Source: Terriglobia bacterium | Lineage (GTDB): Bacteria; Acidobacteriota; Terriglobia; Terriglobales; Acidobacteriaceae | Length of the DNA stretch: 64,000 nt | Assembly: GCA_963797035.1 (NCBI GenBank) | Contig: CAWCOC010000018.1 | Span: 65,589 to 129,588, forward strand | Reading direction: 5' to 3' | In this document: positions 28,302 through 63,867 of the stretch, one piece after another | How the letters are laid out: the number at the start of each line of letters is the position of its first letter | Position numbering within the stretch: the first letter of the stretch is position 1 | The notes under the pieces: generated by a model | Databases searched by the model: none | What the model was told of the DNA's origin: nothing | The model's input: the letters and a program-made list of their open reading frames with translations, nothing else | Position numbers and translations under genes: made by a program

Positions 28302-29360
28302 CTATTTAGAGCCCGTTTTCAGGGTCCAGGAGGCTCCGCCGTCGGGCGTCATCCAGATCTGGCCATCGCGTGTAACTACCCAGCCATGTTGAAGATCGGT
28401 GAAGGCGATCCGCACAATATCGGTGTGGAGCGTCTGCCCGTTCCAGGTTGGGGAGACCGCTGTCCAGCTCTGCCCGGCATTGGCGGAGTGGTATAAACCG
28501 CCCGCATCGCCGCCGGTCCAGATGCTGTCGCCATAGACCGCCACCACCCGAAGCTGCGTCCGGGCTGGGACCGGCACGGCTGCCCATTGCTTGCCGCCAT
28601 CGATGGAGTGCTGCAGTGTGCCGGCACCCGTGACGGACCAGATGGGCCCAAAGGTCGCCGCCGGCACAGCGGCTTCGCTCGCGTTGGTTGCGGCTGTGGC
28701 ATTGGGCTGTGCAGCCGGGAGCGAGCTCGGCAAGGCGTTGGAAACGACTGAGGTCTGGAATGCGCTCTGCCCAAGGGCGCCCGGAACAGCGGGACGGCTC
28801 TGTGCGGCGATGGCCGGATCAAATTGAGCTCCGCCTGAAGGAATTGCCGCCGGGGCTGCCTTGGCCACTTCGGGCGCGGCCGGTCGCGACGGTGAGCGAC
28901 GTGGCGCAGTGGGTTGAACCAAGATTGCCGGCGGCGGAGTAACTTGCGCAGTGTTGGTCGCCGACGTCGCCGGCTGAACCATGGCCGCGGAAGCAGCCGG
29001 ACGGGGAGTGGTCTGATTGATGCGCCCGATCCAAACCGCGCTCAACGCCATGGCGGCGACGACCGCCACACCTGCCCAGCGCAGAGAAGCCCAGGCAAAC
29101 CAGCCGCGATGCGCGGCCACCGGTTGCACAGCGGGGCCGAGTTCCAGCTCAGGCGCAATCATGGCGACCACGCGGTTGCATTCGGCACAGCCGGCCAGGT
29201 GATTGAACAATTGCTGGCGATGACTCTTTACGAGCGTGCCCTCGACAAATGCGGTCAGAACGCCGGAGTCAGGATGGTCTCCAGCAGTCGCGATGCGGCC
29301 CAGGCGCCGCCGAGCGACCTCGGGGAACTCGCCCATATTCTTGCCTTCATCAGCGGTCAT
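28302..29360 (-). CDS. anti-sigma factor (zf-HC2) with one TM and an extracytoplasmic BNR/Ycf48-like domain
   Basis: NHLAGCAEC is an HxxxCxxC motif, and the TM helix is WAGVAVVAAMALSAVWIG. An Ala/Pro-rich linker and three Asp-box-like motifs follow (SIDGGKQW, SANAGQSW, TPDGGASW). ATG 29360 overlaps the sigma-factor stop by 11 nt. Confidence 0.8.
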   Translation of the reverse strand: MTADEGKNMGEFPEVARRRLGRIATAGDHPDSGVLTAFVEGTLVKSHRQQLFNHLAGCAECNRVVAMIAPELELGPAVQPVAAHRGWFAWASLRWAGVAVVAAMALSAVWIGRINQTTPRPAASAAMVQPATSATNTAQVTPPPAILVQPTAPRRSPSRPAAPEVAKAAPAAIPSGGAQFDPAIAAQSRPAVPGALGQSAFQTSVVSNALPSSLPAAQPNATAATNASEAAVPAATFGPIWSVTGAGTLQHSIDGGKQWAAVPVPARTQLRVVAVYGDSIWTGGDAGGLYHSANAGQSWTAVSPTWNGQTLHTDIVRIAFTDLQHGWVVTRDGQIWMTPDGGASWTLKTGSK

Positions 29361-30321
29361 GTTCGCCCTTTTCCTTATCGTTCTGCCTAGAAGACGGGAA
29401 AGTGGGGGAATCTTGCAAATTTTCTTGCAGGCGGGCCCGCACATTGGTTTGCAGGTCGCGCACATCGGTCTCGAAGGCTTCGTCGGCCTGGCGGCGGCTC
29501 ATCCCCCGGCGCATCAGGCCGCGAAGTATTTGTTTTCTTATATTTACGGTTATTTTCTGGATCCGGCGGCTGACCGTGGATTCGTGCAACTGCAGCACCC
29601 GCGCCAGCTCCGCCAAAGTGCGGTCATGAAGAAAGAAAGAGGCAAGGATGAACCGCTCCTCGGCATCCAAGGCGCTCAAGGCTTCATCGGTCGCCTGTTC
29701 CAGCCGCGGATCGACCACCGGGGCAGCTGCCGGCGGCGGGGCTTCGAGCTGCATGCCCAGCTCCGATTCCTCCTCCAGACTGACCAGGCGACGCTGGCTG
29801 CGATAGCGGTCGATGAACGAGCGGGCCATGATGGTGCGCAGCCACCCCTCGAGCGAGCCGTATCCCATGTAGGAGTTCAGAGGGGAAATAGCATGGCTGC
29901 CGGCGCCACACAGCTCCGCATAGAGGGAATCCGCCAATTCACGCCCCAGCGCGTCATCCTTGGCAATGGCAATTCCCCCGTCATAGAGCGGCTCGCGATA
30001 GCGTCCCATGAAAACTTCCCACGCCAACTCGTTTCCGGCGGCGCAAGCCCGGGCCAATACCAGTTCCTGGACATGTACCGAAACGAGAAACTCTCGGATT
30101 CGGGAATTTTCTTCACCCGGTTGCAGGTACTTTTGCAGCGTTTCCGCGAGCATGGCGGAAAATGTCTGCATGGTAAAGCCGAAGCGCGCGGCATCGGCGG
30201 CGGTAAACAGCTCGAGAAGGAGCTGGTCGAAGCCGGCCAGGCGACTGAGAAAAGGAGTCGTGCCGGCTGCCGCAGCCCGGTCGAGTTCGTTCTCGGAGGT
30301 GGGTTTGGGGGTCCCGGTCAT
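29350..30321 (-). CDS. sigma-70 family (ECF-like) RNA polymerase sigma factor, unusually long (323 aa)
   Basis: Region 2-like: SLEGWLRTIMARSFIDRYRSQRR. Region 4 HTH: RTLAELARVLQLHESTVSRRIQKI. ATG 30321 (MTGTPKPTSE) is chosen; the 120 upstream codons of ORF 29350..30681 are Arg/Pro-rich. Confidence 0.85.
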   Translation of the reverse strand: MTGTPKPTSENELDRAAAAGTTPFLSRLAGFDQLLLELFTAADAARFGFTMQTFSAMLAETLQKYLQPGEENSRIREFLVSVHVQELVLARACAAGNELAWEVFMGRYREPLYDGGIAIAKDDALGRELADSLYAELCGAGSHAISPLNSYMGYGSLEGWLRTIMARSFIDRYRSQRRLVSLEEESELGMQLEAPPPAAAPVVDPRLEQATDEALSALDAEERFILASFFLHDRTLAELARVLQLHESTVSRRIQKITVNIRKQILRGLMRRGMSRRQADEAFETDVRDLQTNVRARLQENLQDSPTFPSSRQNDKEKGEHDR

Positions 30322-30615
30322 GCCCAGTCCCGATGGTATCAATATTTTTTGCAAAATTGATGATCTCCGTCGTCTCCTGTACAGCAGGCGTGGATAAGAC
30401 CTATGGCGAAACGAAGGATGTGCGAAGATAGGCTGGGAACGACGAGCGCGGCCAAAGTTCGGTTGGTTGGATGGGGATCCTCCTTGCTGGACGAAGCCGG
30501 CTCGTCGCCCCTGTCGTTGCGTGATAACGCCCTGCACACCTGGGAAACCACTCCCATAAAGCCGGCCAGCCATGGCCGCAACGAGGGCGGGCTGTACCCC
30601 GGCATCGCACAGGTG

Positions 30616-30903
30616 ATGGCCTGCAATAACCGGCGGCACCAGCCGCGGCTGTCGCAGGCGGCGGAAATCCGCATCCGGCAATTTTCATGCGAAGTGGGCG
30701 GAACCACCTGGGGTGAGATTAAGAACCTGAGTCGCGGCGGCCTGTGCGTTGCCAGCCGGGTGCCGCTGTGTCGCTCCTCGGTGGTGCAGTGCGAAATCGG
30801 CGTGCCCAGCATGATGTATGCGATTCCCGCGCTGATGCAGGTTGTGTGGGTGGAGGAGATCGGGCCGTCGGAGTACGAAGTGGGGCTGCGTTACTTGTTT
30901 TAG
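30616..30903 (+). CDS. PilZ domain protein
   Basis: NNRRHQPRL (RxxxR) and then IKNLSRGGLCV (D/NxSxxG) match the c-di-GMP-binding PilZ signature. ATG 30616 is chosen over track start 30403. Confidence 0.7.
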   Translation: MACNNRRHQPRLSQAAEIRIRQFSCEVGGTTWGEIKNLSRGGLCVASRVPLCRSSVVQCEIGVPSMMYAIPALMQVVWVEEIGPSEYEVGLRYLF

Positions 30904-31088
30904 GAAAATCGCGGGCGCTCTCGCGAAAAGTGCCGAGGGGCGCAAGGGGAGGAGGGAGGGCCTACCGGATCGATCGATTGTCCCCATGCGCTGCCGGCAT
31001 GGGAAGCATCTCGCAAATGGGGCAGCCGCGCAATTCCCTAACTCATCTAGTCCGGCGAGTTAATTCGTTTCTGCCGGCGGAGGTGCGG

Positions 31089-31400
31089 TCAAAGGATATA
31101 TACCAAACCGTTGCGATACTCGGCGCCGTGACGCCGCTCGACCCAGCGGACTTGGGCCATGGTGGGGATCTTGACCGGGGCGTCGGAGACAGTAACGTCG
31201 CAGCGGACGACAGAGGAATAGGTAAGCGGCTTGGCCGTGGACAGGCAAATCCCGGTGTCGCTCACGTTGCGGCTGACGCCGCCGATGAGCTCGGGGTTCG
31301 TCGCTTCCTGCTGCGACGACATTTCCTGAACCATGACAGTGACGTTGAATGGATACCGGGTGGCGACGCGCCTCTCATCAGAATCGCGCTTAGGTTTCAT
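31089..31400 (-). CDS. PilZ domain protein
   Basis: DERRVATRYPF (RxxxR) and SRNVSDTGICL (DxSxxG). ATG 31400 gives MKPKRDSDERR.... Confidence 0.75.
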   Translation of the reverse strand: MKPKRDSDERRVATRYPFNVTVMVQEMSSQQEATNPELIGGVSRNVSDTGICLSTAKPLTYSSVVRCDVTVSDAPVKIPTMAQVRWVERRHGAEYRNGLVYIL

Positions 31401-31685
31401 TTTGAGCTCACCGCGACGCAACGACATCAGATTGTGGTTGTCTTACCTGCGATAGCAAAGCCGCACCCAGTCCCGCGCAAGATCGTTCCCAACATTACAG
31501 ACGCTGATCCGATCCCGTCAATACGCTGAATGAACTAGTCAGCTCGGCTAATTACGTCCCTTCAAAAAAGCGGAACCTGCAGACGGGCCAGCGGTTAATC
31601 ACATCGGCGCCGGGATGGCGCCCCGGTGGGGGGCGCAGCGGCAGGCGCAGACTGCTGTGGAAAACAGGCGGGAAACAGGCGCAGA

Positions 31686-33350
<1,665 letters not shown>

Positions 33351-33443
33351 GCGTTCGTCACCCAAATGCGATTCGAAGTCTGATCGTGCGTGTCGCTTGA
33401 TCCGTCGCGCCTGCGGCGCAAGGAGCGGTCAGCAGCGAAAGCT

Positions 33444-34037
33444 CTAGGTACCTCGAACCCCTTCCAGATCGCGATAACGGTACGATTCAACGGGCGTGGT
33501 CCCGGCGACGCGTCCAATCAGGCCGGCGCGCGTGCTGACGCCCATCTTGGTCATGACCGAGTGCAGGAAGGCCTTCACGGTGTTGGGGCTGATGCTCATC
33601 TCGGTTGCGATCTCCTTGCTGGTCAGACCGCGCAAAAGATGTCCCATGGCTTCGCGCTCGCGGGTGGTCAGGTTGTATTTCTTGGAGATGCCGTAGAGGG
33701 TGACTTCGGGCGAGGAAGCCCGCTCCAGGAGAATGGCGGTGGTGCCCTTGCTCATGCCGGTCATGTCGAGGCAATGGCTGGTGCAGACATAGCGCCGACG
33801 ACCAGAGATGAACTCCGCAACTGTCCTGGCCTGGGGCACGCCACGCAGCAGATGCATGGGGACCTTGCCGTTGACCAATTCGTTGAGTTGCCGACCTTTT
33901 CCCGGCTTGCCTGGATAAGCCAGGATTCGCATGGCCTCGATATTGGAGGCAATCAGATCTTTTTGGGGACCGAGAAGCAGCAGCCCAGGCATCGACATTG
34001 CTGGAGCTCGGCCATCGGAATAACGCTGCGGTGCCAT
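33444..34037 (-). CDS. LuxR/GerE-family transcriptional regulator with an uncharacterised N-terminal domain of about 130 aa
   Basis: The C-terminal HTH is LTTREREAMGHLLRGLTSKEIATEMSISPNTVKAFLHSVMTKMGV. ATG 34037 follows GGAAGGA. Confidence 0.85.
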   Translation of the reverse strand: MAPQRYSDGRAPAMSMPGLLLLGPQKDLIASNIEAMRILAYPGKPGKGRQLNELVNGKVPMHLLRGVPQARTVAEFISGRRRYVCTSHCLDMTGMSKGTTAILLERASSPEVTLYGISKKYNLTTREREAMGHLLRGLTSKEIATEMSISPNTVKAFLHSVMTKMGVSTRAGLIGRVAGTTPVESYRYRDLEGVRGT

Positions 34038-34192
34038 AGTTTTATCCTTCCCGTGTTCGGAATCGTGCCTCAGGAGCCCTGACCGATTACGAGGGCCGGA
34101 GCACCGCTCAGCGCCACCCCGTTTGCAACCGAGCGCCTGGTCAGCGCGCTCTCCCTCTACTGCGTTACCTGGCCCGTACTGCAGGTCCGAGA

Positions 34193-36225
34193 TCACTGGA
34201 CCGTCAATTGGATCGTGCCGCCGAAGGAGGGCGTGGTGAAGCCCACGGGCTGCGCGACGGAAATGTTGGCGACGCCAAGCGACTGGAGTTGCAAGGTGAA
34301 GGCCGTAGTGCTGCCGCCGCCCGCAATGTTGAAGGGGCTGCCCAGCACCGCCGCCGCAGGACTATCGCTGCCCACGGGGATTGACGGCGATAGGCCGCCG
34401 CGCACTTGCTGCACCAGGCTGGGGACACCACTGGAATTCAGCACCATGGCGTACATGGTCAATCCTTGAGTGCCCTGGGCCAGCGGCACGCTGAACGGGT
34501 TGCCCACGTTGTTGTTGCCGGCGAGCACGAAGGCGGATGGCGCCAGCGTTACCGTGGTCAGCGTGGAGGAATACCCGGCCGCGGAGGCCTGCAACTGCAC
34601 CGTGCCCGCCCCGCCCAGTGCCTGAACGTAGTACTGCGGGAAGCCGCTGCCGTTCAGGCCATTGCCCGGCAGGATGAGCAGTTGAATGCTCGCCGAACCC
34701 ACTGCCGTGGGCGAGGTTGACAGCAACACGTTGTTCGGATCGAGGCTGGTGACGGTGACCATGACGCCATTCTGCGTCGCGGCCTCCAGGGAACCGGTCG
34801 CTTGCACCTCAAGGTTCTGGCCAATGGTGGAGATCGGCATACGCAGGGTCACTGCCGGCTGATGGACAGTGACATTGATCTGACCGCCGACCGCCGGGGT
34901 AGCGTATCCGGCCGGCTCAACCACGCTGAGCACCGTGCTGCATGGCGCGTTACTGCAGGCCGGCAGGAAGTACATCTCGGTGTTGACGGTGTCGCCGCCG
35001 TGGAAGGTAATCGGGCTGTTGAGGATGGTCCCCGAACTCGGCGTACCGCTGGTGACGCCGACCGATTCGTTGCGTCCCGGGCGCAACTGTCCGCCGTTGG
35101 ATACCGGCCGCCCACCGGAATCGAGCTGATAGAGCGCGATCGCCAGGTTGGTGGCGTCGGAGGTGGTCGAGGTGGAGAAGTCGCCAGTGCCGTTCGGACC
35201 GTTCAGAATAAACGCGGACGGGCTGAGTGCCACATTGGCGGTACCGTTGGAATAGCCGGAAGCGGTGGCCGTGAGAGTGACGACGCCGCTATTGGCCAGG
35301 GCCTGGACATAGAACGCAGGCAGAGTGGTGGAGCCGGCGGGGACCTGCAGGTTGATGGTGGAGGCGCCCACCACCGCCGGATCGGTGGTCAGCAGCACCT
35401 TACTCGCATCGCCGCTGGTGAGGTTGACCGTCAGCGCGCTGGAAGACGAGCGGTTCAGTTGTCCAGCACCCACAATCTGCTGGTTGAAGCCGACCGTAAT
35501 CGGGCTGAGGCTGATGGCCGGCGTGATGACAGTCGCGGTGAGTTGCGTACCGGCTGCCGGGGTGTTGTAACCAGATGGCTGCGTAACGTGGAGCAACGTG
35601 GCGCCGGAAGCCACCGGAGTAAAGGTAACGGCGGCGCTGCTGCTCGCTCCGGCGGACACAACCGCGGGGCTGGTAACCGTGCCAACCGAGGTGGTGCCGG
35701 AGATGACCGGAACGCTGGCCGAAATGCCTCCGCGCAGTACCGCGCTGGTGGACAAAACGTTACCCGCCGCATCCAACTGCACCATATTGGCGGTCAGAGG
35801 CGTGGTGGTGCCAAGCGTTGAAGTGAAATTCACGCCGGCGCCGCCGGGACCGTTGAGCTGGAAGCCGGATGGCGTCATGGTGATGACACCGGTCCCGGTC
35901 TGGTAGCCGATGGCGCTGACGGTGATGTTCGCCGTACCCGAAGAGCCCAACACCTGCACCCAGAAGCCGGGGAAGCCGAAGTCACCGACTCTGCCCTTTC
36001 CAGGCGCGATGGTGGCGGTGAAGCTGGCCGTACCCACCGTAGTTCCGGCGGGATCGATAGCCGTCGGCACCAGCAGGACTTTGCTGGGATCGCTGCTCGC
36101 GATGGTGACGGTCAACGGAGTCGGGGACGTGATGTCGAGCGATCCGATGGCGGTCGCTTCCTGGTCCTTGCCCAAGCTCAGCGAATTCAGGCTGAAGTGA
36201 CCGCGATAGAAACCAGTGCCGCTGA
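34193..36225 (-). repeat. 3 tandem C-terminal modules of about 225 aa in giant gene 1 (shared with giant gene 2)
   Basis: Each unit shows ...LTVT..SSDPSKVLL..., F(Y/W)VQ.L..SG......SA.GY......V.L.PS.F.L.GP.G, then LD..G......LR.G. The same order and motifs occur at 55213-57239 in the paralogue. Confidence 0.75.
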
Positions 36226-44405: not shown

Positions 44406-44421
44406 TTAACCGCGGGGTTAA
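44406..44421. promoter_or_regulatory. inverted repeat TTAACC-GCGG-GGTTAA
   Basis: Read directly. It abuts the stop codon of gene 44422..45309 and lies about 750 bp upstream of the giant gene 1 start. Confidence 0.3.
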
Positions 44422-45309
44422 TCAGTGGCCGGCAGTGGGTGGAGGGGTGAGCGGAATGGCGCCCGCCATCGGGGGAACCGGTGGATACGAGGGTTTGAAG
44501 CCGCCCTGGATCAACTGCATCAGGTTCCAGGGATACAGCTTTCCAAGATTCGGATCGATTCCCGGCGGAAGTTGCGGCAGGCCGATGGCGCCCTTGGGAA
44601 CAGCGCCCGGATCGTTGGGGACCTGAAAAGCCGGTCCACTTAAGCCCGAACCGGCGCCGTTCGCCGGCAAGGCGGAGCTGGCCGTTTCCGGGAAACTGGG
44701 CAGCGATCCGGTATCGGCGACCGCCTGAGCGATCCCCGGGTAGAGCGCCCACATTGAACTGGGAACGCCCGGCGGCAGCGCGGGCAGACGCTTGATCATT
44801 TCAGCGTCCACTTCGGGCCGTTGAGCCGTCCGGTCGTATCGGGAGTCGTCGGAAGCCAGGGCCAGCCTGGCGGCGTCGTCCTTTTTCTTCTGCTCTGCCA
44901 GCTTCTTCAAATCATCCGCCGACAGGACGACGGCGGCCCGGCGTTCGGTGAGTGCAACGCCCACCAAGCCTCCCGACCCATCCGCTTTGGCAATGAGACG
45001 CGAATTAAACGGAAGACCATCGAGCAGGTCCGAAAGCACACGGGCAGGCTGACCGGGACCGAGCGTGGCGAATACCGGAAGCGCGCTGGCAGATCCCGGC
45101 ATGGTGGTCTCAATGCCGGTGGCGTGGCTGATGGCGTTCAGCACCTGCCGCAGCGAGCAGCCCTGGGAAGAAACAATCAGCTGCCCCGCCCGCAAGGTCG
45201 CGACGCGCTGATCGCACTGCGGCGCGAGTACTTCGGAGGCGCGGAGGCTGGCTGCAATCAGCAGCACCGCGAACATCACCCGCAAGCAACGGCCTGCCAC
45301 GATAGCCAT
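44422..45309 (-). CDS. secreted hypothetical protein (STN-like N-terminal segment, Pro-rich C-terminus)
   Basis: ATG 45309 gives MAIVAGRCLRVMFAVLLIAASLRA. CSLRQVLNAISHATGIE resembles the secretin/TonB short N-terminal (STN) motif. The tail is proline-rich (LPALPPGVP...PSYPPVPPMAGAIPLTPPP). Confidence 0.6.
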   Translation of the reverse strand: MAIVAGRCLRVMFAVLLIAASLRASEVLAPQCDQRVATLRAGQLIVSSQGCSLRQVLNAISHATGIETTMPGSASALPVFATLGPGQPARVLSDLLDGLPFNSRLIAKADGSGGLVGVALTERRAAVVLSADDLKKLAEQKKKDDAARLALASDDSRYDRTAQRPEVDAEMIKRLPALPPGVPSSMWALYPGIAQAVADTGSLPSFPETASSALPANGAGSGLSGPAFQVPNDPGAVPKGAIGLPQLPPGIDPNLGKLYPWNLMQLIQGGFKPSYPPVPPMAGAIPLTPPPTAGH

Positions 45310-45442
45310 TAGAGTATTCCCCGGCACGGCGCGCCGCCCAGAAGAGGACCGGGATGGACGCTCTCCGGCCCCCTGCTCAGGCACACTCGCCACAGCTGCA
45401 GTCAACCACTCGGCGGCAAGGAATTCAAGTCTCCGGTCGAAC

Positions 45443-45457
45443 TAACCCGCGCGGTTA
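45443..45457. promoter_or_regulatory. inverted repeat TAACC-CGCGC-GGTTA in a divergent promoter region
   Basis: Read directly. It lies 134 bp upstream of ATG 45309 (-) and 197 bp upstream of ATG 45654 (+). Confidence 0.35.
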
Positions 45458-45653
45458 ATCGCGCGAGCGTGTGACCGCGCTCTCCGCTCTAATCCTTCCG
45501 ACTAGGCGCTCGGGTTGCTGCCTTTGGGCTAGCGGCATTGGTTAAGACCTCTGGAGAATTGTCAACTCCCCCTTTGCGGCGCAATCTCGTAAACGTTTGG
45601 ACCGTGCTGCTCCTCCCATCACTGGAACAAACCACTCAAGGAGGATCCCCAAA

Positions 45654-46301
45654 ATGAAGAAACTGGTTGTTGTTCTTGGGCTCCTGCTGCTGATGTCCAC
45701 AGTTCCGGCATTTGCGCAGGGAAGCTACTTTGTCGACTACTACTCCAACAACCTCAACCCACTGGCCGCCGATCAGGTGATCCGCGCCATCAACACCGGT
45801 ACCTATGGAACGCCGCTGACCAGCATTGGCCAGAACGGTGGCACGCCTGGAACCGGCGACATCTGCGAAAACGTCTACGTGTTCGACAACAACCAGGAAA
45901 TGATTTCCTGCTGCGCTTGCCGTCTGACCCCCGATGAGCTGTCTTCGGCGGAAGTCGGCGCCCAACTGACCAATCATGCCCTGACCGGGACCGCTCCGGT
46001 GGCCGGCGTCGTGAAACTTCTCTTCACGCTTCCGAATGCTGCCAACGGTCCGACCGGTTGCCGAGCTGAGACACTCGTCGGAGCTCTGGCGGACTCTTCG
46101 GCTGCGGTTTTCGGAACTCACCTTCAGGCTGAGCCTCCGTCATCGCCGAGCAGCCTGTTCGTGACCGAGACCGAGAAGCTCCCGCAGGCTCTGTCGGCTG
46201 CGGAATATGCCTTCCTGCCGAACGCTTGCTCGTTCGTGCGTTACCTCGGCAGCGGCGCCCCGGGTACCTGCAGCTGCACCGCCGGCCTGGGTTCGCGGTA
46301 A
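45654..46301 (+). CDS. Cys-rich secreted protein of unknown family (paralogue A)
   Basis: AAGGAGGA lies 7 nt before ATG 45654, and the signal peptide is MKKLVVVLGLLLLMSTVPAFAQ. Blocks shared with 60796..61488: GDIC.N.YV.D..Q.M..CC.CR.TP..L.SA.VGAQLT...LTG..P.AGVVK.L, GTHL, FVTE and FL...C.FVRYLGSG.G.CSC. Confidence 0.8.
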   Translation: MKKLVVVLGLLLLMSTVPAFAQGSYFVDYYSNNLNPLAADQVIRAINTGTYGTPLTSIGQNGGTPGTGDICENVYVFDNNQEMISCCACRLTPDELSSAEVGAQLTNHALTGTAPVAGVVKLLFTLPNAANGPTGCRAETLVGALADSSAAVFGTHLQAEPPSSPSSLFVTETEKLPQALSAAEYAFLPNACSFVRYLGSGAPGTCSCTAGLGSR

Positions 46302-46345
46302 TAGGGACACGTAGCAATGTGGGTTGCTGATTAGCGTCACGGGTC

Positions 46346-46381
46346 GCGTGCCGAGTGGAATGCCGCTTGGCACGCGCTTTT
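46346..46381 (+). terminator. possible rho-independent terminator after Cys-rich gene A
   Basis: GCGTGCCGAG (46346-46355) pairs with CTTGGCACGC (46366-46375, one G-U pair), followed by GCTTTTG. Confidence 0.45.
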
Positions 46382-46639
46382 GCCCGAAACATCCGCTGGG
46401 GTAAGGGCGGAGAGAGAACGGCAAGGTGGGGGCGATTGGAAAAAGCAATCAGGACGGCACACACGATGCCAGGTCCTGGCAGACAGCAATGCAGCAGTTG
46501 ATGGGCTGTGCCGACAAAAGAGCCGCTCAAGCGGCCGAAAACCGGAAACAGTTTCGTAGTTCGCAACTTAACGCCTTCCCCCGCCACGCAGTACAAACCG
46601 GCGCCAGTTGGCGCAGGAAAACAACCGAGGAGTGACACG

Positions 46640-47686
46640 ATGCAATTGGCAACTAGAATCACACGTTTTGCTCTGTGCCTGGCGATACTGGCGACCATGG
46701 GGATGGCTTCGGCCCAGAACTCATCGGACGTAGTGACGGAAATCAACGGCGAAAAGGTCACACGCGCCCAACTTCACGACCAGGAAGCCGGCTCGCTGCT
46801 GCAACCGCGGTATGACTTTTACCAGGCCGAGCAAAAGGCGCTCAACAACCTGATCGCCCGCCGCCTGCTGGAAAAGGAAGCGGCGCGGCAGAAGCTCACG
46901 GTCGAAGAACTGCTGAAGCGCGACGTCGACAGCAAGGTGAAAGACCTGACCGAAGAGCAGCTGCGCACGGTCTACGATGTCATCAGTCCCAAGGAACCGT
47001 TTGAGGCCACCCGCGCCAAGATCCTGGACTCGGTGCACTCACAGCGCGTCCAGAAAGCCCGCCTGGCCTACATTGAAAGCCTGCGCGAAAAAAGCGACGT
47101 GCTGGTGCTGCTGGCGCCGCCGCGCGCCGACTTCGCAGTCGGCGACTCGCCGCGAATCGGCCCCGCCGACGCCCCGGTGCAGTTGGTCGAGTTCGCCGAT
47201 TATGAGTGCCCGTATTGCATCAAAGTGCAACCCGACCTGAAGAAGCTGACCGCCGAGTTCGGCGACAAGGTCAGCTTCGTGTTCAAAGACTTCCCACTTC
47301 CCATGCATGCTCACTCGCAAAAGGCGGCGGAAGCCGCGCGCTGCGCTCTGGTCCAGAACAAGTTCTGGGAATATCACGATCGGCTGTTTTCCAGCACGCA
47401 AATCGATGAGCCCGCGTTAAAGCAGTTCGCGACCGACCTCAAGCTCGACGTGACCAAATTCACCGCTTGCCTGGACTCCGGCCAGCAAACCGCGGCGGTG
47501 CAGAAGGACGCCACGGAAGCGCAGAAGATCGGCCTCAACGGTACTCCCAGCTTTTTCCTGAACGGACGCTTCTTCACTGGCGCGCTGCAATACCAGGACC
47601 TGCGCCAGATGGTGCTGCAGGAATTGTCTGCCAAGAACAAAGACAAGGACAAAGACAAATCCATCGCCGCGAAACAGGGACAGTAA
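46640..47686 (+). CDS. DsbA-family thiol:disulfide oxidoreductase with N-terminal chaperone-like helical domain
   Basis: GAGGAG precedes ATG 46640, and the signal peptide is MQLATRITRFALCLAILATMGMASAQ. The thioredoxin-fold active site is FADYECPYC, with GTPSFFLNG downstream. Confidence 0.88.
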   Translation: MQLATRITRFALCLAILATMGMASAQNSSDVVTEINGEKVTRAQLHDQEAGSLLQPRYDFYQAEQKALNNLIARRLLEKEAARQKLTVEELLKRDVDSKVKDLTEEQLRTVYDVISPKEPFEATRAKILDSVHSQRVQKARLAYIESLREKSDVLVLLAPPRADFAVGDSPRIGPADAPVQLVEFADYECPYCIKVQPDLKKLTAEFGDKVSFVFKDFPLPMHAHSQKAAEAARCALVQNKFWEYHDRLFSSTQIDEPALKQFATDLKLDVTKFTACLDSGQQTAAVQKDATEAQKIGLNGTPSFFLNGRFFTGALQYQDLRQMVLQELSAKNKDKDKDKSIAAKQGQ

Positions 47687-57283: not shown

Positions 57284-58282
57284 GTGTACAAGGGAGGGAT
57301 GCGTCGCGGAGGTGGTCGATTGCGCCGTAAAGGGTTGTGGGTCGCAGCACTGGGGATCTGCGTTGCTCTCCTGGTTGGGCAGGCGAGCAGTGAAGTCCTG
57401 GACAAGCTCTTTCTCAACAGCACTGTCCTGATTTCCTATAGCGTCACCGCGCCTCCCCATTCGGCGTCCGATACAAAGCTGCCGGCCAAGCCGGCCCAAC
57501 CCGTGGGCGTCCTGAATGGAACGGGCTTCCTGCTATTCGGCGACCTGGGTGTGGCCAAGGGCACGGTGTACCTGATCACCAACCGGCACGTGCTTCCTCC
57601 CGAAGGCGCGCGGAAAGAGATCCAGATCAGGGTGGTGGTGCGACTGGGTGACGGCACTACCAAGATCGACGAAATCTCGGTCCCCATCGTCGGCAGCAAC
57701 GGCAAATACCTGCCGACCGTGCGCGTCCACAAGGATCCGGCAACCGACGTGGCCGCGGTGAACATTGGCACCGCCGCGTTCGGCTCCCGCTTCAGCCTGC
57801 TGGTGGAGGCCATCAAGACGGGCAAGTATTTGAACCCGTCGATGCTGCTGACCACGGAACGAATGCGCACCGCAAATGTCGGCGTGGGAACGCCGGTCTA
57901 CATCCTCGGATATCCGGCGGCGATTTTTGATCCGCGGAATGTTTCCCCGGTCTTGCGCGTCGGGGTGATCTCCACCGACCCCCAGGAAGGTTTTAACTTC
58001 AATCCCGAACTCCGCCAAACCATGGGTTTCCCGGAGCACATGAACGGATTCCTGCTGGATGCGAACATCTATCCCGGATCAAGTGGGAGCCTGGTTGTTC
58101 TCGCACCCGAAAACTGCGGTTGCAGCAAGGACGCCGCGCCACAGCGTACCTACATCCTGGGCATCGTCAGCGGTTCCATTCCGATTTTCGACGCGTCGCT
58201 TCACGCCTACTCCCGGATTGGATTGGGCATGGTGTATTCGGCCGATACGATTCGTGAGGTCCTGGACAGCTTTCGCCGGTAA
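57284..58282 (+). CDS. trypsin-like (S1/PA clan) serine protease, membrane-anchored or secreted
   Basis: Triad context: TNRHVL (His), DVAAVNIG (Asp), YPGSSGSLV (Ser). The N-terminal hydrophobic segment is GLWVAALGICVALLVG. The start is either GTG 57284 or ATG 57299. Confidence 0.85.
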   Translation: MYKGGMRRGGGRLRRKGLWVAALGICVALLVGQASSEVLDKLFLNSTVLISYSVTAPPHSASDTKLPAKPAQPVGVLNGTGFLLFGDLGVAKGTVYLITNRHVLPPEGARKEIQIRVVVRLGDGTTKIDEISVPIVGSNGKYLPTVRVHKDPATDVAAVNIGTAAFGSRFSLLVEAIKTGKYLNPSMLLTTERMRTANVGVGTPVYILGYPAAIFDPRNVSPVLRVGVISTDPQEGFNFNPELRQTMGFPEHMNGFLLDANIYPGSSGSLVVLAPENCGCSKDAAPQRTYILGIVSGSIPIFDASLHAYSRIGLGMVYSADTIREVLDSFRR

Positions 58283-60795: not shown

Positions 60796-61488
60796 CTACT
60801 CACCCGGGGTAGAACAACTGCAGCTACCCCGGCCGCTGCCCAGGTAGCGCACGAACAAACAACTGCTCGACAGAAAATTGGCCTCGTCAGGCCCGAGCGG
60901 TACAACCGGCAGGGGAGCCTCGGTAACGAACGTCGAATTGCCGCTTACTTCCAAGTGAGTGCCGAATCCGGTGGCCAGGGTAGCGTCCGAATACGCGAAG
61001 GGCGAAATCGGAGTGCAACCGGTCGTCGGGGCTTGCAGCAACAGGATCTTGACCACGCCCGCAGCCGGAACTGCGCCGGTCAACGTACTACTGGTTAACT
61101 GGGCACCCACCCGGGCGCTCAGCAATCCGTTGGGAGTGATCCGGCAGGAACAACAAGCCACCATGGCCTGGTCGGCGTCGTAGACGTAGATGTTGGCGCA
61201 GATGTCGCCTTTTCCTGGCACCCCATTCGGACCCCAACCGAGGCTGTCCAGCGGCGTGCCGTTCACGCCAACATTGATGATGCGCAGCAACTGGTCCGCT
61301 GCAGCCCCCGGACCCCGGTTGCCGGAATAACGGGCCACCATGCAAGTTTGCGGCGGAGGCGTTTGCGCCAGCAGCGTCGGACAAGCCATCAACGCCACAA
61401 AGGCAACAACAGCCCATCGCAGCCTTCTCGAGGCTGTTCCCGCATACGGACGGCGGGTTACCGGGGCACTCAAAGCGCACGGCTCCAC
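60796..61488 (-). CDS. Cys-rich secreted protein of unknown family (paralogue B)
   Basis: GTG start, with signal-like RRLRWAVVAFVALMACPTLLAQ. It shares GDICANIYVYDADQAMVACCSCRITPNGLLSARVGAQLTSSTLTGAVPAAGVVKIL and FLSSSCLFVRYLGSGRGSCSCS with 45654..46301. Confidence 0.8.
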   Translation of the reverse strand: MEPCALSAPVTRRPYAGTASRRLRWAVVAFVALMACPTLLAQTPPPQTCMVARYSGNRGPGAAADQLLRIINVGVNGTPLDSLGWGPNGVPGKGDICANIYVYDADQAMVACCSCRITPNGLLSARVGAQLTSSTLTGAVPAAGVVKILLLQAPTTGCTPISPFAYSDATLATGFGTHLEVSGNSTFVTEAPLPVVPLGPDEANFLSSSCLFVRYLGSGRGSCSCSTPGE

Positions 61489-61560
61489 AGCTTTAGTGTG
61501 CGCGAGGACCCGGCAGCAAACAATTCTCCTGATTGGTTAAGCGGGCGGTCTAGGCCATCC

Positions 61561-61583
61561 GGACTAACCCGTTCGGTTAGTCC
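61561..61583. promoter_or_regulatory. 23-bp palindrome GGACTAACC-CGTTC-GGTTAGTCC
   Basis: Perfect 9-bp arms, read directly. It lies 73 bp upstream of Cys-rich gene B (start 61488, -) and 83 bp upstream of ATG 61666 (+). Confidence 0.45.
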
Positions 61584-61665
61584 ACTTGCAGTCTGTCCAA
61601 ATTGCCCGCTTTGCGGCACCCTGTAGCTTCCTCCCCGCTGCGCTACTGTGCCAAACCTTCGACGC

Positions 61666-63867
61666 ATGGATTTCGACTGGAGGGGCGAACTGTCCCAGGC
61701 GGATTCTCGCCTGCGGCGGTACGTGGGCTTCGCGGTCCTGGGGCTTGTCCTGCTGTATGCCTTGCTGGCCGGGCTGCGCACCGTTACCGAGGCCGATACC
61801 GGATGGCAATTGGCCAGCGGACGATACATTTTCCAGCACCATCAGCTTCCTGCCACCGACGTCCTTTCGTATACCGAACACGGGCAGGCCTGGATTTATC
61901 CTCCGCTCTCCGAGCTGATTCTCTACCTTATTTATGCGTTGGGCGGATTTGCCGCCCTGTCGTGGATGAATGCCGCGGCCTGTGCCGCCACCATTGGACT
62001 TGGGTTGTGGGCAGAGACCGGAACCGCCGCTGCCCTGCTGGCCATCCTCGCCATTCCCAAGATCGCGTACCGGACCGCTCCCCGCGCCGACGTATTTACG
62101 ACCGTGCTGTTCGCCGCCCTACTCGTCGTCCTCTGGCGGCATTACCAAGGCCGGGCCGCGCACCTGTGGTTAGTCCCATTGATTTTTCTGGTCTGGGCTA
62201 ACACGCACCTGGGCTTCATCGCGGGTTTCGCCCTGTTGATCGCGTATGCGGGGATGGAACTGGCCGAGTTCCTGGTTGCCGAGCGTCGCCCGGGGGCAAG
62301 CCGCCGGCTGAGGTCCGCACTGCCCTGGCTGATCGCGGCCTTCCCCATCACACTCTGTAATCCATGGGGCTGGGGAGTCTACGGCGCGCTGCTTCGACAG
62401 GAGCGGGACATGGCGGCGCAACAAAACGTGATCGCCGAGTGGCGCCATGTTCCGCTCAACGCGAGCACTCTCGCCGAAGCGCTGCAATGGCGAAATCCCA
62501 ACAGCGGTTATTTCTGGCTGCTGGCGCTCACCCTGGTTGCGGCTGCGGTCGCGCTGAAACGCCGGCACGTTGGCCCGGCAGCATTGCTGTTGGGCGCGGC
62601 GTTTCTGTCGCTGCGCCACATCCGCTTCCAAGGCTTGTTTGCGACGGTCGCAATGGTAGTGGCAGCGCCGTTCCTGGCAGCCCTGTTCGCGCCGCGCGGC
62701 GAAGCGGTTCAGAAGACCCGGGCACAGCGACGCCGGGAAATTGTCCGCGCCCGAGAGCCTCTGCTGGCGCGCTACCGGCCCATGCTCGTGGCCGCCGCTT
62801 TGCTGATGTGCACGCTCCTGCTCGGGTTTCGCGACTACGACTTGATTACGCAGCGCGCGTATATCGCCGCAGGTGACGTCAATCTGTTTGGCGCTGGTCT
62901 CTCCACCTGGTATCCAGAACGAGCGGCCGACTTTGTTCTCCGCGGGAAGTTGCCGCGCAACATCTTCCATGACTACAACCTTGGTGGGTTTCTTGCCTTC
63001 CGCCTGGGGCCCGAGTATCCGGACTACATTGATGGCCGCGCCATTCCCTTCCGCGACTTGATGGCGGAGCAACGCGCATTGATGGTGGAATCGCCGGATT
63101 CGCCGGCGTGGAAGCAGGAGGCCGATCAGCGGGGCATCAACACCTTAATGTTCTCGCTGGCGCGCTACTGGGGGCTGCCCGGATCCACACTGCGCCAGTT
63201 CTGCTCCAGCCACTCCTGGACGCCGGTGTACCTGGATGAGGTCGCCATCGTGCTGGTACGCAATCGGCCGGAAAACCAGGCTTTGATCCAACGGCTCGGG
63301 GTGGACTGTCAGAAAGTGAAGTTCGATCCGCCGACCGCCTTGACCGCGGCCAATTCTACCCGCGACCGCGCCGAACTGTTCAACTTCTACGCCCATGCGG
63401 GTTCAATTCTGTTCAAGCTGTCGCGCCTCCCCGAAGCAGAAGTCGAGATCGATCGCGCCATCCAGATGTTTCCCGAAGAGCCGTTCCTGCACCAGATCCG
63501 CGGACAGATCTACCAGGCGAAAGCACAGCCCGTGGACGCCGAACGCGAGTATCTCGAATCGGTGCGCCTGAAACCGGCAGAAGCCACCTGGTATACGCTG
63601 GCCATGCTTTATTCCTCGGAACGCCGGTACGATGATGCGGCACACGCGCTGCAGCAGGCGGCGGAGTTGTCGGTCCACCCCAGCCAGTACTACCTTTCGC
63701 TGGGCGAACTTTACGTTTCCATCCGCCAGCCGCAGAAGGCGCTCAGCGCGTTCGATGCCGCGGCTGAAAATTCCGATTTTGAATCCCCCGAAATCAAGGC
63801 GCGGCTCGAATCGCAGATTGCTCAAGGGCGCGCGCAGGCTTGGACCAGCGCGCCGGCAGCACCGTGA
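61666..63867 (+). CDS. large polytopic membrane protein (about 11 TM) with C-terminal TPR repeats
   Basis: ATG 61666 gives MDFDWRG..., then many hydrophobic helices through about aa 400. The TPR-like tail reads ELFNFYAHAGSILFKLSRLPEAEVEIDRAIQMFPEEP, YQAKAQPVDAEREYLESVRLKP, YTLAMLYSSERRYDDAAHALQQAAEL and LGELYVSIRQPQKALSAFDAA. Confidence 0.8.
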   Translation: MDFDWRGELSQADSRLRRYVGFAVLGLVLLYALLAGLRTVTEADTGWQLASGRYIFQHHQLPATDVLSYTEHGQAWIYPPLSELILYLIYALGGFAALSWMNAAACAATIGLGLWAETGTAAALLAILAIPKIAYRTAPRADVFTTVLFAALLVVLWRHYQGRAAHLWLVPLIFLVWANTHLGFIAGFALLIAYAGMELAEFLVAERRPGASRRLRSALPWLIAAFPITLCNPWGWGVYGALLRQERDMAAQQNVIAEWRHVPLNASTLAEALQWRNPNSGYFWLLALTLVAAAVALKRRHVGPAALLLGAAFLSLRHIRFQGLFATVAMVVAAPFLAALFAPRGEAVQKTRAQRRREIVRAREPLLARYRPMLVAAALLMCTLLLGFRDYDLITQRAYIAAGDVNLFGAGLSTWYPERAADFVLRGKLPRNIFHDYNLGGFLAFRLGPEYPDYIDGRAIPFRDLMAEQRALMVESPDSPAWKQEADQRGINTLMFSLARYWGLPGSTLRQFCSSHSWTPVYLDEVAIVLVRNRPENQALIQRLGVDCQKVKFDPPTALTAANSTRDRAELFNFYAHAGSILFKLSRLPEAEVEIDRAIQMFPEEPFLHQIRGQIYQAKAQPVDAEREYLESVRLKPAEATWYTLAMLYSSERRYDDAAHALQQAAELSVHPSQYYLSLGELYVSIRQPQKALSAFDAAAENSDFESPEIKARLESQIAQGRAQAWTSAPAAP

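Follow-up and report, generated by a model that had tools for sequence, protein, structure and literature searches.

Dedicated pairs of a DsbA paralogue and its substrate include SrgA and the PefA fimbrial subunit, DsbL/DsbI and AssT, and the Bdb proteins and sublancin. In each pair, a specialised oxidoreductase gene lies next to the gene for an exported Cys-containing substrate. A similar arrangement is found in a 64,000-nucleotide stretch of a Terriglobia bacterium genome (GenBank assembly GCA_963797035.1, contig CAWCOC010000018.1, positions 65,589 to 129,588; hereafter the window). Here, a gene for a Cys-rich secreted protein (copy A) is followed by a gene for a SurA_N-DsbA protein, and a paralogue (copy B) lies in the same window. 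As in the described pairs, this oxidoreductase is additional to a separate housekeeping DsbA-type protein, encoded by an open reading frame (ORF) of ~530 amino acids (aa) in all relatives. Unlike the known substrates, the family of A and B is unrelated to fimbrial subunits, sulfotransferases, and lantibiotic-like peptides. The oxidase also differs from SrgA, DsbL/DsbI, and Bdb in carrying an N-terminal SurA-like chaperone domain, and no DsbB/DsbI partner is seen in its cassette. Copies A and B belong to a set of seven paralogues; their family, mainly acidobacterial and not described before, comprises Sec-exported modules of ~190 aa that are predicted to fold as beta-sandwiches. We favor, at slightly better than even confidence, the reading that they are disulfide-stapled extracytoplasmic interaction or assembly modules with a dedicated SurA_N-DsbA and a PAS-LuxR regulon, and not dedicated accessories of the giant proteins encoded nearby.

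Copy A (45654..46301, plus strand) encodes 215 aa counted from its ATG; a longer TTG-started frame opens at 45597. The product has a predicted Sec signal peptide, cleaved between AFA and QG, followed by the Cys-rich beta-sandwich module of ~190 aa. Copy B (60796..61488, minus strand) is a divergent paralogue of 230 aa whose start is uncertain, either GTG 61488 or TTG 61473. The two proteins share 49% identity over 190 residues (BLASTP, E 2e-48). Both secreted-protein ORFs are present where the initial annotation placed them, with Sec-type signal peptides on their products. The sequence blocks that it considered shared (GDIC.N.YV.D..Q.M..CC.CR.TP, GTHL, FVTE, and FVRYLGSG.G.CSC) are conserved in an alignment of 38 homologues, and the Cys pattern that it proposed is borne out by the pair alignment, which has eight cysteines common to A and B (A positions 71, 86, 87, 89, 136, 192, 206, and 208). 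However, the family is not merely present twice, because the genome (4.85 Mb, 24 contigs) carries seven copies, including A and B. Six of these share roughly 75-90% identity, with B divergent, and all seven are stand-alone proteins.

Copy B has further peculiarities. It lacks the MKK start and the ribosome-binding site (RBS) of its relatives, and its n-region reads SRRLRW. Tat export of copy B was considered and is unlikely, since its positional orthologues in two other genomes (loci L014 and L015) begin with ordinary MKK signal peptides. A ninth, extra Cys lies near the mature N-terminus (…PPPQTC…) and is absent from the positional orthologues; an intermolecular bond could form through it.

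The family is large and nameless. An exhaustive search of representatives, clustered at 50% identity, returned at least 1284 clusters at E<=1e-3, a lower bound on family size, and 536 at E<=1e-10. All 100 relatives from a word-indexed search are unnamed or labeled "hypothetical," and precomputed Pfam annotation exists for only one, a Big_3_5 match on a longer fused member; stand-alone homologues have no entry in the precomputed Pfam annotation of a newer release. The description of A and B as an unrecognised family therefore holds across the collections compared. Neither protein matches Pfam at E<=0.1, NCBIfam matches do not rise above noise (the top one has E 0.05 and 12.9 bits, where the cut-off is 300; TIGR03437 is also without a match), PHROG and PADLOC give no matches, and a profile search of PDB sequences yields only noise at E>1. 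A cluster look-up yielded no names, and a literature search for the family found nothing. Most surface and matrix proteins of Acidobacteriota, which rank with the most abundant bacteria in soil, are uncharacterised. The large domain family defined here has no name, solved relative, or significant fold match, and it is a candidate for a Pfam or NCBIfam entry.

Named carriers are almost all Acidobacteriota (Terriglobia, Terriglobales, and Bryobacterales), with a few outside the phylum (Eisenbacteria, Aquilonibacter, and one "delta proteobacterium" metagenome-assembled genome). Occurrence is patchy. The family is found in 6 of 41 close relatives and in 7 of 201 genomes of the class, a sample independent of the 41 relatives in which only 15 candidates per genome were scored. 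Carriers are mostly multi-copy, and tandem arrays of up to seven divergent copies are common. In this genome, BLASTN similarity among the paralogues reaches ~15-25 nucleotides (nt) ahead of the coding sequence and no more than ~70 nt past it; beyond these limits, only short upstream motifs are shared. A mobile element or repeat cassette carrying the paralogues was rejected, given that flanks are unshared and neighbours differ at each copy. A phage or defence origin was likewise rejected, with no PHROG or PADLOC matches and nothing at E<=0.001 in a Foldseek comparison with viral models. One paralogue (contig C21, 32646-33335) has an unusual insertion site in a cell-division and wall cluster, where it lies on the opposite strand between a murE-like gene (30790-32295) and an ftsI-like gene (33409-35607). 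In another genome of the class (G117), a module pair consisting of a stand-alone and a ~557-aa fused copy occurs twice on contig C1 (522284-527055 and 769416-771806) with near-identical scores, which indicates a recent cassette duplication.

The gene downstream of copy A (46640..47686, plus strand, in a frame open from 46508) likely starts at ATG 46640, preceded by the RBS GAGGAG. Its product combines SurA_N and DsbA-like domains and matches the Pfam families Thioredoxin_4 (E 2.4e-33) and DSBA (E 7.2e-22), both above cut-offs. A CPYC site lies within FADYECPYCIK, and the N-terminus is signal-like (MQLATRITRFALCLAILATMGMASAQ). The protein is predicted to be a DsbA-type thiol oxidase from its domain, CxxC motif, and export signal. 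Neighbouring genes were clustered in 50 related loci from about 30 genomes. In 15 of these 50 loci, each from a different genome, a family gene is immediately followed on its own strand by a SurA_N-DsbA gene. Full-length orthologues of this DsbA are present in four of the six carriers among the 41 relatives and in none of the 35 non-carriers (p 1.5e-4); the compared genomes are kin, so that this and the other p-values overstate independence and are indicative only. In the class sample, the six top-scoring DsbA matches (E<=1e-90, >=45% identity) all come from carriers (6 of 7, against 0 of 194 non-carriers; p 8e-11), and in each of these six genomes, the window's own and five others, the DsbA gene is directly downstream of a family gene. 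The link to a CPYC protein, which the initial annotation had drawn from adjacency at copy A, is therefore strengthened to a conserved and co-inherited partnership.

A regulator completes the cassette. The candidate family regulator in the window (33444..34040, also given as 33444..34196, minus strand) is a one-component protein with a PAS-like domain and a LuxR/GerE helix-turn-helix (HTH) domain (GerE, E 2.4e-15). Its model (predicted local distance difference test, pLDDT, 79) has a PAS-like N-terminal fold, and EL222 and VqmA are its closest structural matches (E about 2e-5). These two proteins share its two-domain architecture of PAS/LOV and LuxR-HTH and bind DNA as dimers. However, they have 13-18% sequence identity to the cassette regulator, and the LOV flavin-binding motif is not evident in it. 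A LuxR-type regulator is present in 19 of the 50 related loci. Among the 41 relatives, the regulator is found in four of six carriers and one of 35 non-carriers (p 7e-4), and in carriers at the class level it stands beside the cassette. The module, the SurA_N-DsbA clade, and the PAS-LuxR regulator form a conserved, co-inherited cassette, often with PilZ genes nearby. An Eisenbacteria locus (L024) keeps the same order of regulator, module, module, and DsbA. This three-part cassette of a module, an oxidase with a chaperone domain, and a sensor-regulator, together with a candidate operator, is defined here.

The candidate operator was found upstream of the family genes. All seven paralogues have the same layout: a palindrome TARSC-N5-GSYTA (TA[AG][CG]C-N5-G[GC][TC]TA), then a few to about 22 nt, and then a CTCTGGAGAATTGTT-like box. 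The box is followed after about 90-103 nt by the RBS AAGGAGGATCCCC and an ATG, and this RBS of copy A is also found at its paralogues. The exception is copy B, whose box (61519..61533, minus strand, ATCAGGAGAATTGTT) is only 37 nt from GTG 61488, which casts more doubt on its start codon. Upstream of copy A, an exact palindrome TAACC-N5-GGTTA (45443..45457) lies 211 nt from the gene, and a degenerate palindrome, TAGCGGCATTGGTTA, is followed by the box CTCTGGAGAATTGTC (together 45530..45563, plus strand); the box starts 105 nt, and its AATTGT core 97 nt, before the ATG. Another exact TAACC-N5-GGTTA (61565..61579) lies 77 nt upstream of copy B. In total, the window has three exact TAACC-N4/5-GGTTA sites, where 0.04 would be expected, and two of the three are those upstream of A and B. 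The third (TAACC-N4-GGTTA, 44407..44420) is between the gene at 44422..45405 and the upstream region of the first giant gene.

Genome-wide, 10 of 36 palindrome matches are within 400 nt upstream of the seven family genes. The degenerate box is nearly unique to the family, with five of its seven matches at family genes. Outside this genome, the sequence upstream of stand-alone family genes amounts to 6.4% of bases and holds 22 of 48 palindrome matches; of the 78 such genes, 19 have the palindrome and 15 have the box. On the basis of the shared palindrome and box, the seven paralogues look like one regulon, and the PAS-LuxR protein is the obvious candidate to bind the palindrome. Further exact TAACC-N5-GGTTA sites lie upstream of other genes (C1:125759, C1:606018, C1:879294, C11:122663, and C18:10620). 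These genes, among them two for secreted proteins (539 and 727 aa) and one that resembles a sigma-54-type activator gene, may be more members of the regulon.

An AlphaFold2 model built from the alignment of 38 sequences (pLDDT 84; predicted template modeling score, pTM, 0.81) is a confidently predicted beta-sandwich of eight to nine strands, ending in a 17-residue helix and a short tail. Foldseek gave no match at E<=0.001 among PDB and viral models. The best matches are weak (E 6.4e-3 to 0.05; template modeling score 0.37-0.40 on the query and 0.63-0.67 on the shorter target) and include two small beta-sandwiches, TM1070 and the Anabaena sensory rhodopsin transducer (ASRT; PDB 1nc7 and 2ii8). 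ASRT also has a C-terminal helical segment. However, these proteins are cytoplasmic, lack disulfides, and have no sequence or profile match to the family.

Cysteine losses were counted over 230 full-length domains. Loss of C89 coincides with loss of the last cysteine (C208/9) in all 28 of 28 cases, joint loss of C71 and C136 is seen six times, and C86, C87, C192, and C206 are invariant. Such paired losses speak for four intramolecular disulfides among the eight cysteines. The probable pairs, from covariation and the strand geometry of the model, are C71-C136, C86-C192, C87-C206, and C89-C208. A CxC at the very C-terminus of a small secreted sandwich is also a feature of BslA, an Ig-like biofilm surface protein of Bacillus that forms intermolecular bonds through its CxC. 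The family has no detectable homology to BslA, and, unlike in that protein, its CxC cysteines co-vary with cysteines of the same domain. The other family-wide conserved positions are mainly Gly and aromatic residues, plus N47, K121, T155, E172, and E184. This pattern, dominated by Cys, Gly, and aromatics, looks structural or binding rather than catalytic.

The module also occurs fused to other proteins. Among 248 members, 186 (75%) are stand-alone, 53 have the domain at the extreme C-terminus, seven have it at the N-terminus, and none have it internally. In 53 of the 62 fused members, no more than about 12 residues follow the domain. The fused proteins are Ig-repeat surface proteins and the like, and the partners, which are stalk or passenger domains typical of the cell surface, include DUF7933 (16 of 60) and DUF11 (12 of 60), as well as CarboxypepD_reg/SdrD_B/SpaA, He_PIG, lactonase propellers, Big_2, and an S8 peptidase. 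The fusions within the conserved cassette are Big_2-repeat proteins with lipoboxes, in which the domain is predicted to sit at the far end of a lipid-anchored stalk.

Such extreme C-terminal placement on very diverse passengers is also a feature of the PEP-CTERM, IPTL-CTERM, LPXTG, type IX secretion system C-terminal domain, and TIGR03437 "Soli_cterm" elements, and the same DUF7933/DUF11 passengers carry either the family domain or such signals. Of the 119 homologues of one DUF7933/DUF11 passenger, 10 have the family domain at the end, 32 have an IPTL/PEP-CTERM-like or LPXTG-like signal there, and about 30 have a different C-terminal module. The family domain therefore occupies the usual place of anchoring signals, a "choice of anchor" comparison that is informative but indecisive. 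However, the family differs from sorting signals in being a folded, disulfide-rich domain of 190 aa that is mostly stand-alone and sometimes N-terminal, without a sortase-like partner. Its members end in GSGxGxCxC and 3-8 polar residues, and not in the hydrophobic helix or basic tail of PEP-CTERM, IPTL-CTERM, or LPXTG signals. The other module of the ~30 DUF7933/DUF11 proteins has a hydrophobic stretch, AGCG, and then …TPAGTY..TVTA…LTVQ(P). It resembles an additional acidobacterial element for C-terminal sorting or anchoring, and it may correspond to the PF27334 entry of precomputed annotations.

We infer from these observations an oxidation step, a pairing of regulator and operator, a localization, and a binding or assembly function for the module. 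After Sec export, the adjacent DsbA, acting as oxidase and through its SurA-like chaperone domain, would form the four disulfides, which would fasten the C-terminal helix and tail to strand beta-4. Dimers of the PAS-LuxR protein would bind the TARSC-N5-GSYTA palindrome and co-regulate all copies in a single regulon, which may belong to a c-di-GMP-responsive surface island. Outside the cytoplasm, the folded module would then act in interactions (adhesion or assembly), as a free protein or at the far tip of surface stalks. Several observations weigh against this reading. Genomes that lack the family commonly encode SurA_N-DsbA proteins at 33-41% identity, and the partner is therefore a specific clade and not the architecture. 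One genome (G004) keeps the DsbA though no family gene adjoins it, and three (G008, G009, and G084) carry the family without the DsbA clade. Additionally, this genome has only stand-alone copies, and the placement at the tip of a stalk comes from other genomes.

A bolder reading, to which we give limited credence, treats the domain as a docking or polymerising unit that self- or hetero-associates. In this reading, free copies would assemble into an extracellular scaffold hardened by disulfides, into which domain-ended proteins plug, with DsbA maturing the units and the PAS-LuxR protein, possibly with c-di-GMP through PilZ and MshEN, switching the system on. If so, Acidobacteriota would have a surface-display system in place of PEP-CTERM/IPTL-type sorting, with Big_2 stalks, DUF7933/DUF11 adhesins, and the S8 protease among the plug-ins. 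A docking or assembly unit would explain the retention of many acidobacterial surface proteins that lack sorting signals. The related idea of a new C-terminal sorting or anchoring domain, which replaces PEP-CTERM, IPTL-CTERM, or LPXTG and is either bound by an attachment machinery or docks onto stand-alone copies as a base layer or receptor, is rather unlikely. The near-terminal position in fused proteins and the alternative endings of the DUF7933/DUF11 passenger suit it well. Yet the domain has no transmembrane helix or basic tail, the cassette encodes no conserved candidate sorting enzyme, and cassette fusions are already lipid-anchored at the N-terminus. The predominance of stand-alone members, the seven with an N-terminal domain, and the lack of a fused member in this genome also speak against anchoring. 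Patchy accessory occurrence, tandem arrays of divergent copies, a dedicated oxidoreductase, and sugar-binding-like sandwiches among the weak best fold matches would fit secreted lectin-like or antagonistic effectors (large bacteriocins or toxins), diversified by tandem duplication and matured by DsbA, as disulfide-containing bacteriocins are by their own oxidoreductases. This is improbable, given that no immunity-like small genes are interleaved in the arrays, the conserved residues include no catalytic-looking set, PHROG and PADLOC matches are absent, and adhesin-type stalk fusions suit binding better than killing.

The initial annotation had proposed that A and B are ligands, caps, toxins, or anchors for the giant ASH/choice-of-anchor-D proteins of the window. 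Both copies do adjoin giant genes, one related locus (L011) shares synteny with the window, giant gene 1 has a TAACC-N4-GGTTA site upstream, and short ASH-repeat proteins follow DsbA in five other loci (L035, L038, L043, L044, and L049). However, the suggested co-occurrence was not found: giants are present in five of six carriers and in 22 of 35 relatives without the family (Fisher p 0.64), and one carrier (G009) has none. Five of the seven paralogues are far from any giant, beside unrelated genes, and most cassettes in other genomes have Big_2 lipoproteins instead of giants. The giants are Cys-poor, and hmmsearch --max returned only noise for a family domain within them, including the ~225-aa C-terminal modules of giant 1. 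A role specific to the giants is thus very improbable. The ASH-repeat genes after DsbA in those five loci show that the two kinds of genes share surface-protein islands; a specific partnership is unsupported. Least probable of all is a periplasmic metal or redox protein whose CCxC and CxC clusters bind a metal or redox cofactor. By prediction, five cysteines lie close together near strand beta-4 and the C-terminal tail, and the joint loss of C89 and C208 would also suit a shared ligand pair, but the number of conserved cysteines is even, C71/C136 form a second, separate co-varying pair, the conserved partner is a DsbA-type oxidase, and the cassettes lack metal-handling genes. The disulfide-stapled interaction or assembly module remains the reading that we prefer.

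The cassette set in the window consists of two PilZ genes, an MshEN-T2SSE ATPase gene, the PAS-LuxR gene, giant gene 1, the gene at 44422..45405, copy A, and DsbA. The PilZ-domain genes (30403..30903, plus strand; 31089..31427, minus strand), which recur in related cassettes, the MshEN-T2SSE ATPase gene (31686..33365, minus strand), a gene for a sigma-70 region-4 protein (29350..30681, minus strand), and the regulator gene are grouped downstream of giant gene 1. PilZ and MshEN are cyclic di-GMP (c-di-GMP)-binding domains, and the locus may therefore be under c-di-GMP control.

Between copy A and the DsbA gene, where the initial annotation placed a putative terminator, a hairpin is present (46345..46382, plus strand), with an 8-bp stem and a 16-nt loop (CGCGTGCC-N16-GGCACGCG, then CTTTTG). 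However, it is weak and is not called by a terminator scan. Within it, TGGCACG-CGCT-TTTGC (46369..46386) resembles a sigma-54 promoter with a GG-to-GC spacing one base too long. A sigma-54 reading was rejected for this sequence and for the CTCTGGAGAATTGTT box, as the GG-to-TTG(C) spacing is wrong in both.

The gene at 44422..45405 (minus strand) is a conserved divergent neighbour of copy A and encodes a predicted secreted or anchored Pro-rich protein with no family match in Pfam or NCBIfam. Its homologues occupy the same position, divergent and upstream of family genes, in about seven related loci. The product has a conserved N-terminal block, …GQL.ISS.GCSL.QVL.AIS..TG…, and a C-terminal PPGIDPN..LYPWNLMQL motif, and two more partial paralogues are found in the genome (C18:21068-21331 and C11:119078-119320). 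The synteny with L011 covers the copy-A region fully, and L014 is syntenic with the copy-B region. A trypsin-like peptidase gene (57284..58282, plus strand) and a gene for a large polytopic membrane protein with C-terminal tetratricopeptide repeats (61648..63867, plus strand) keep their place beside copy-B orthologues in L014-L016. In L015, an 1807-aa protein takes the copy-B position; it has an N-terminal family domain ahead of about 17 CarboxypepD_reg repeats.

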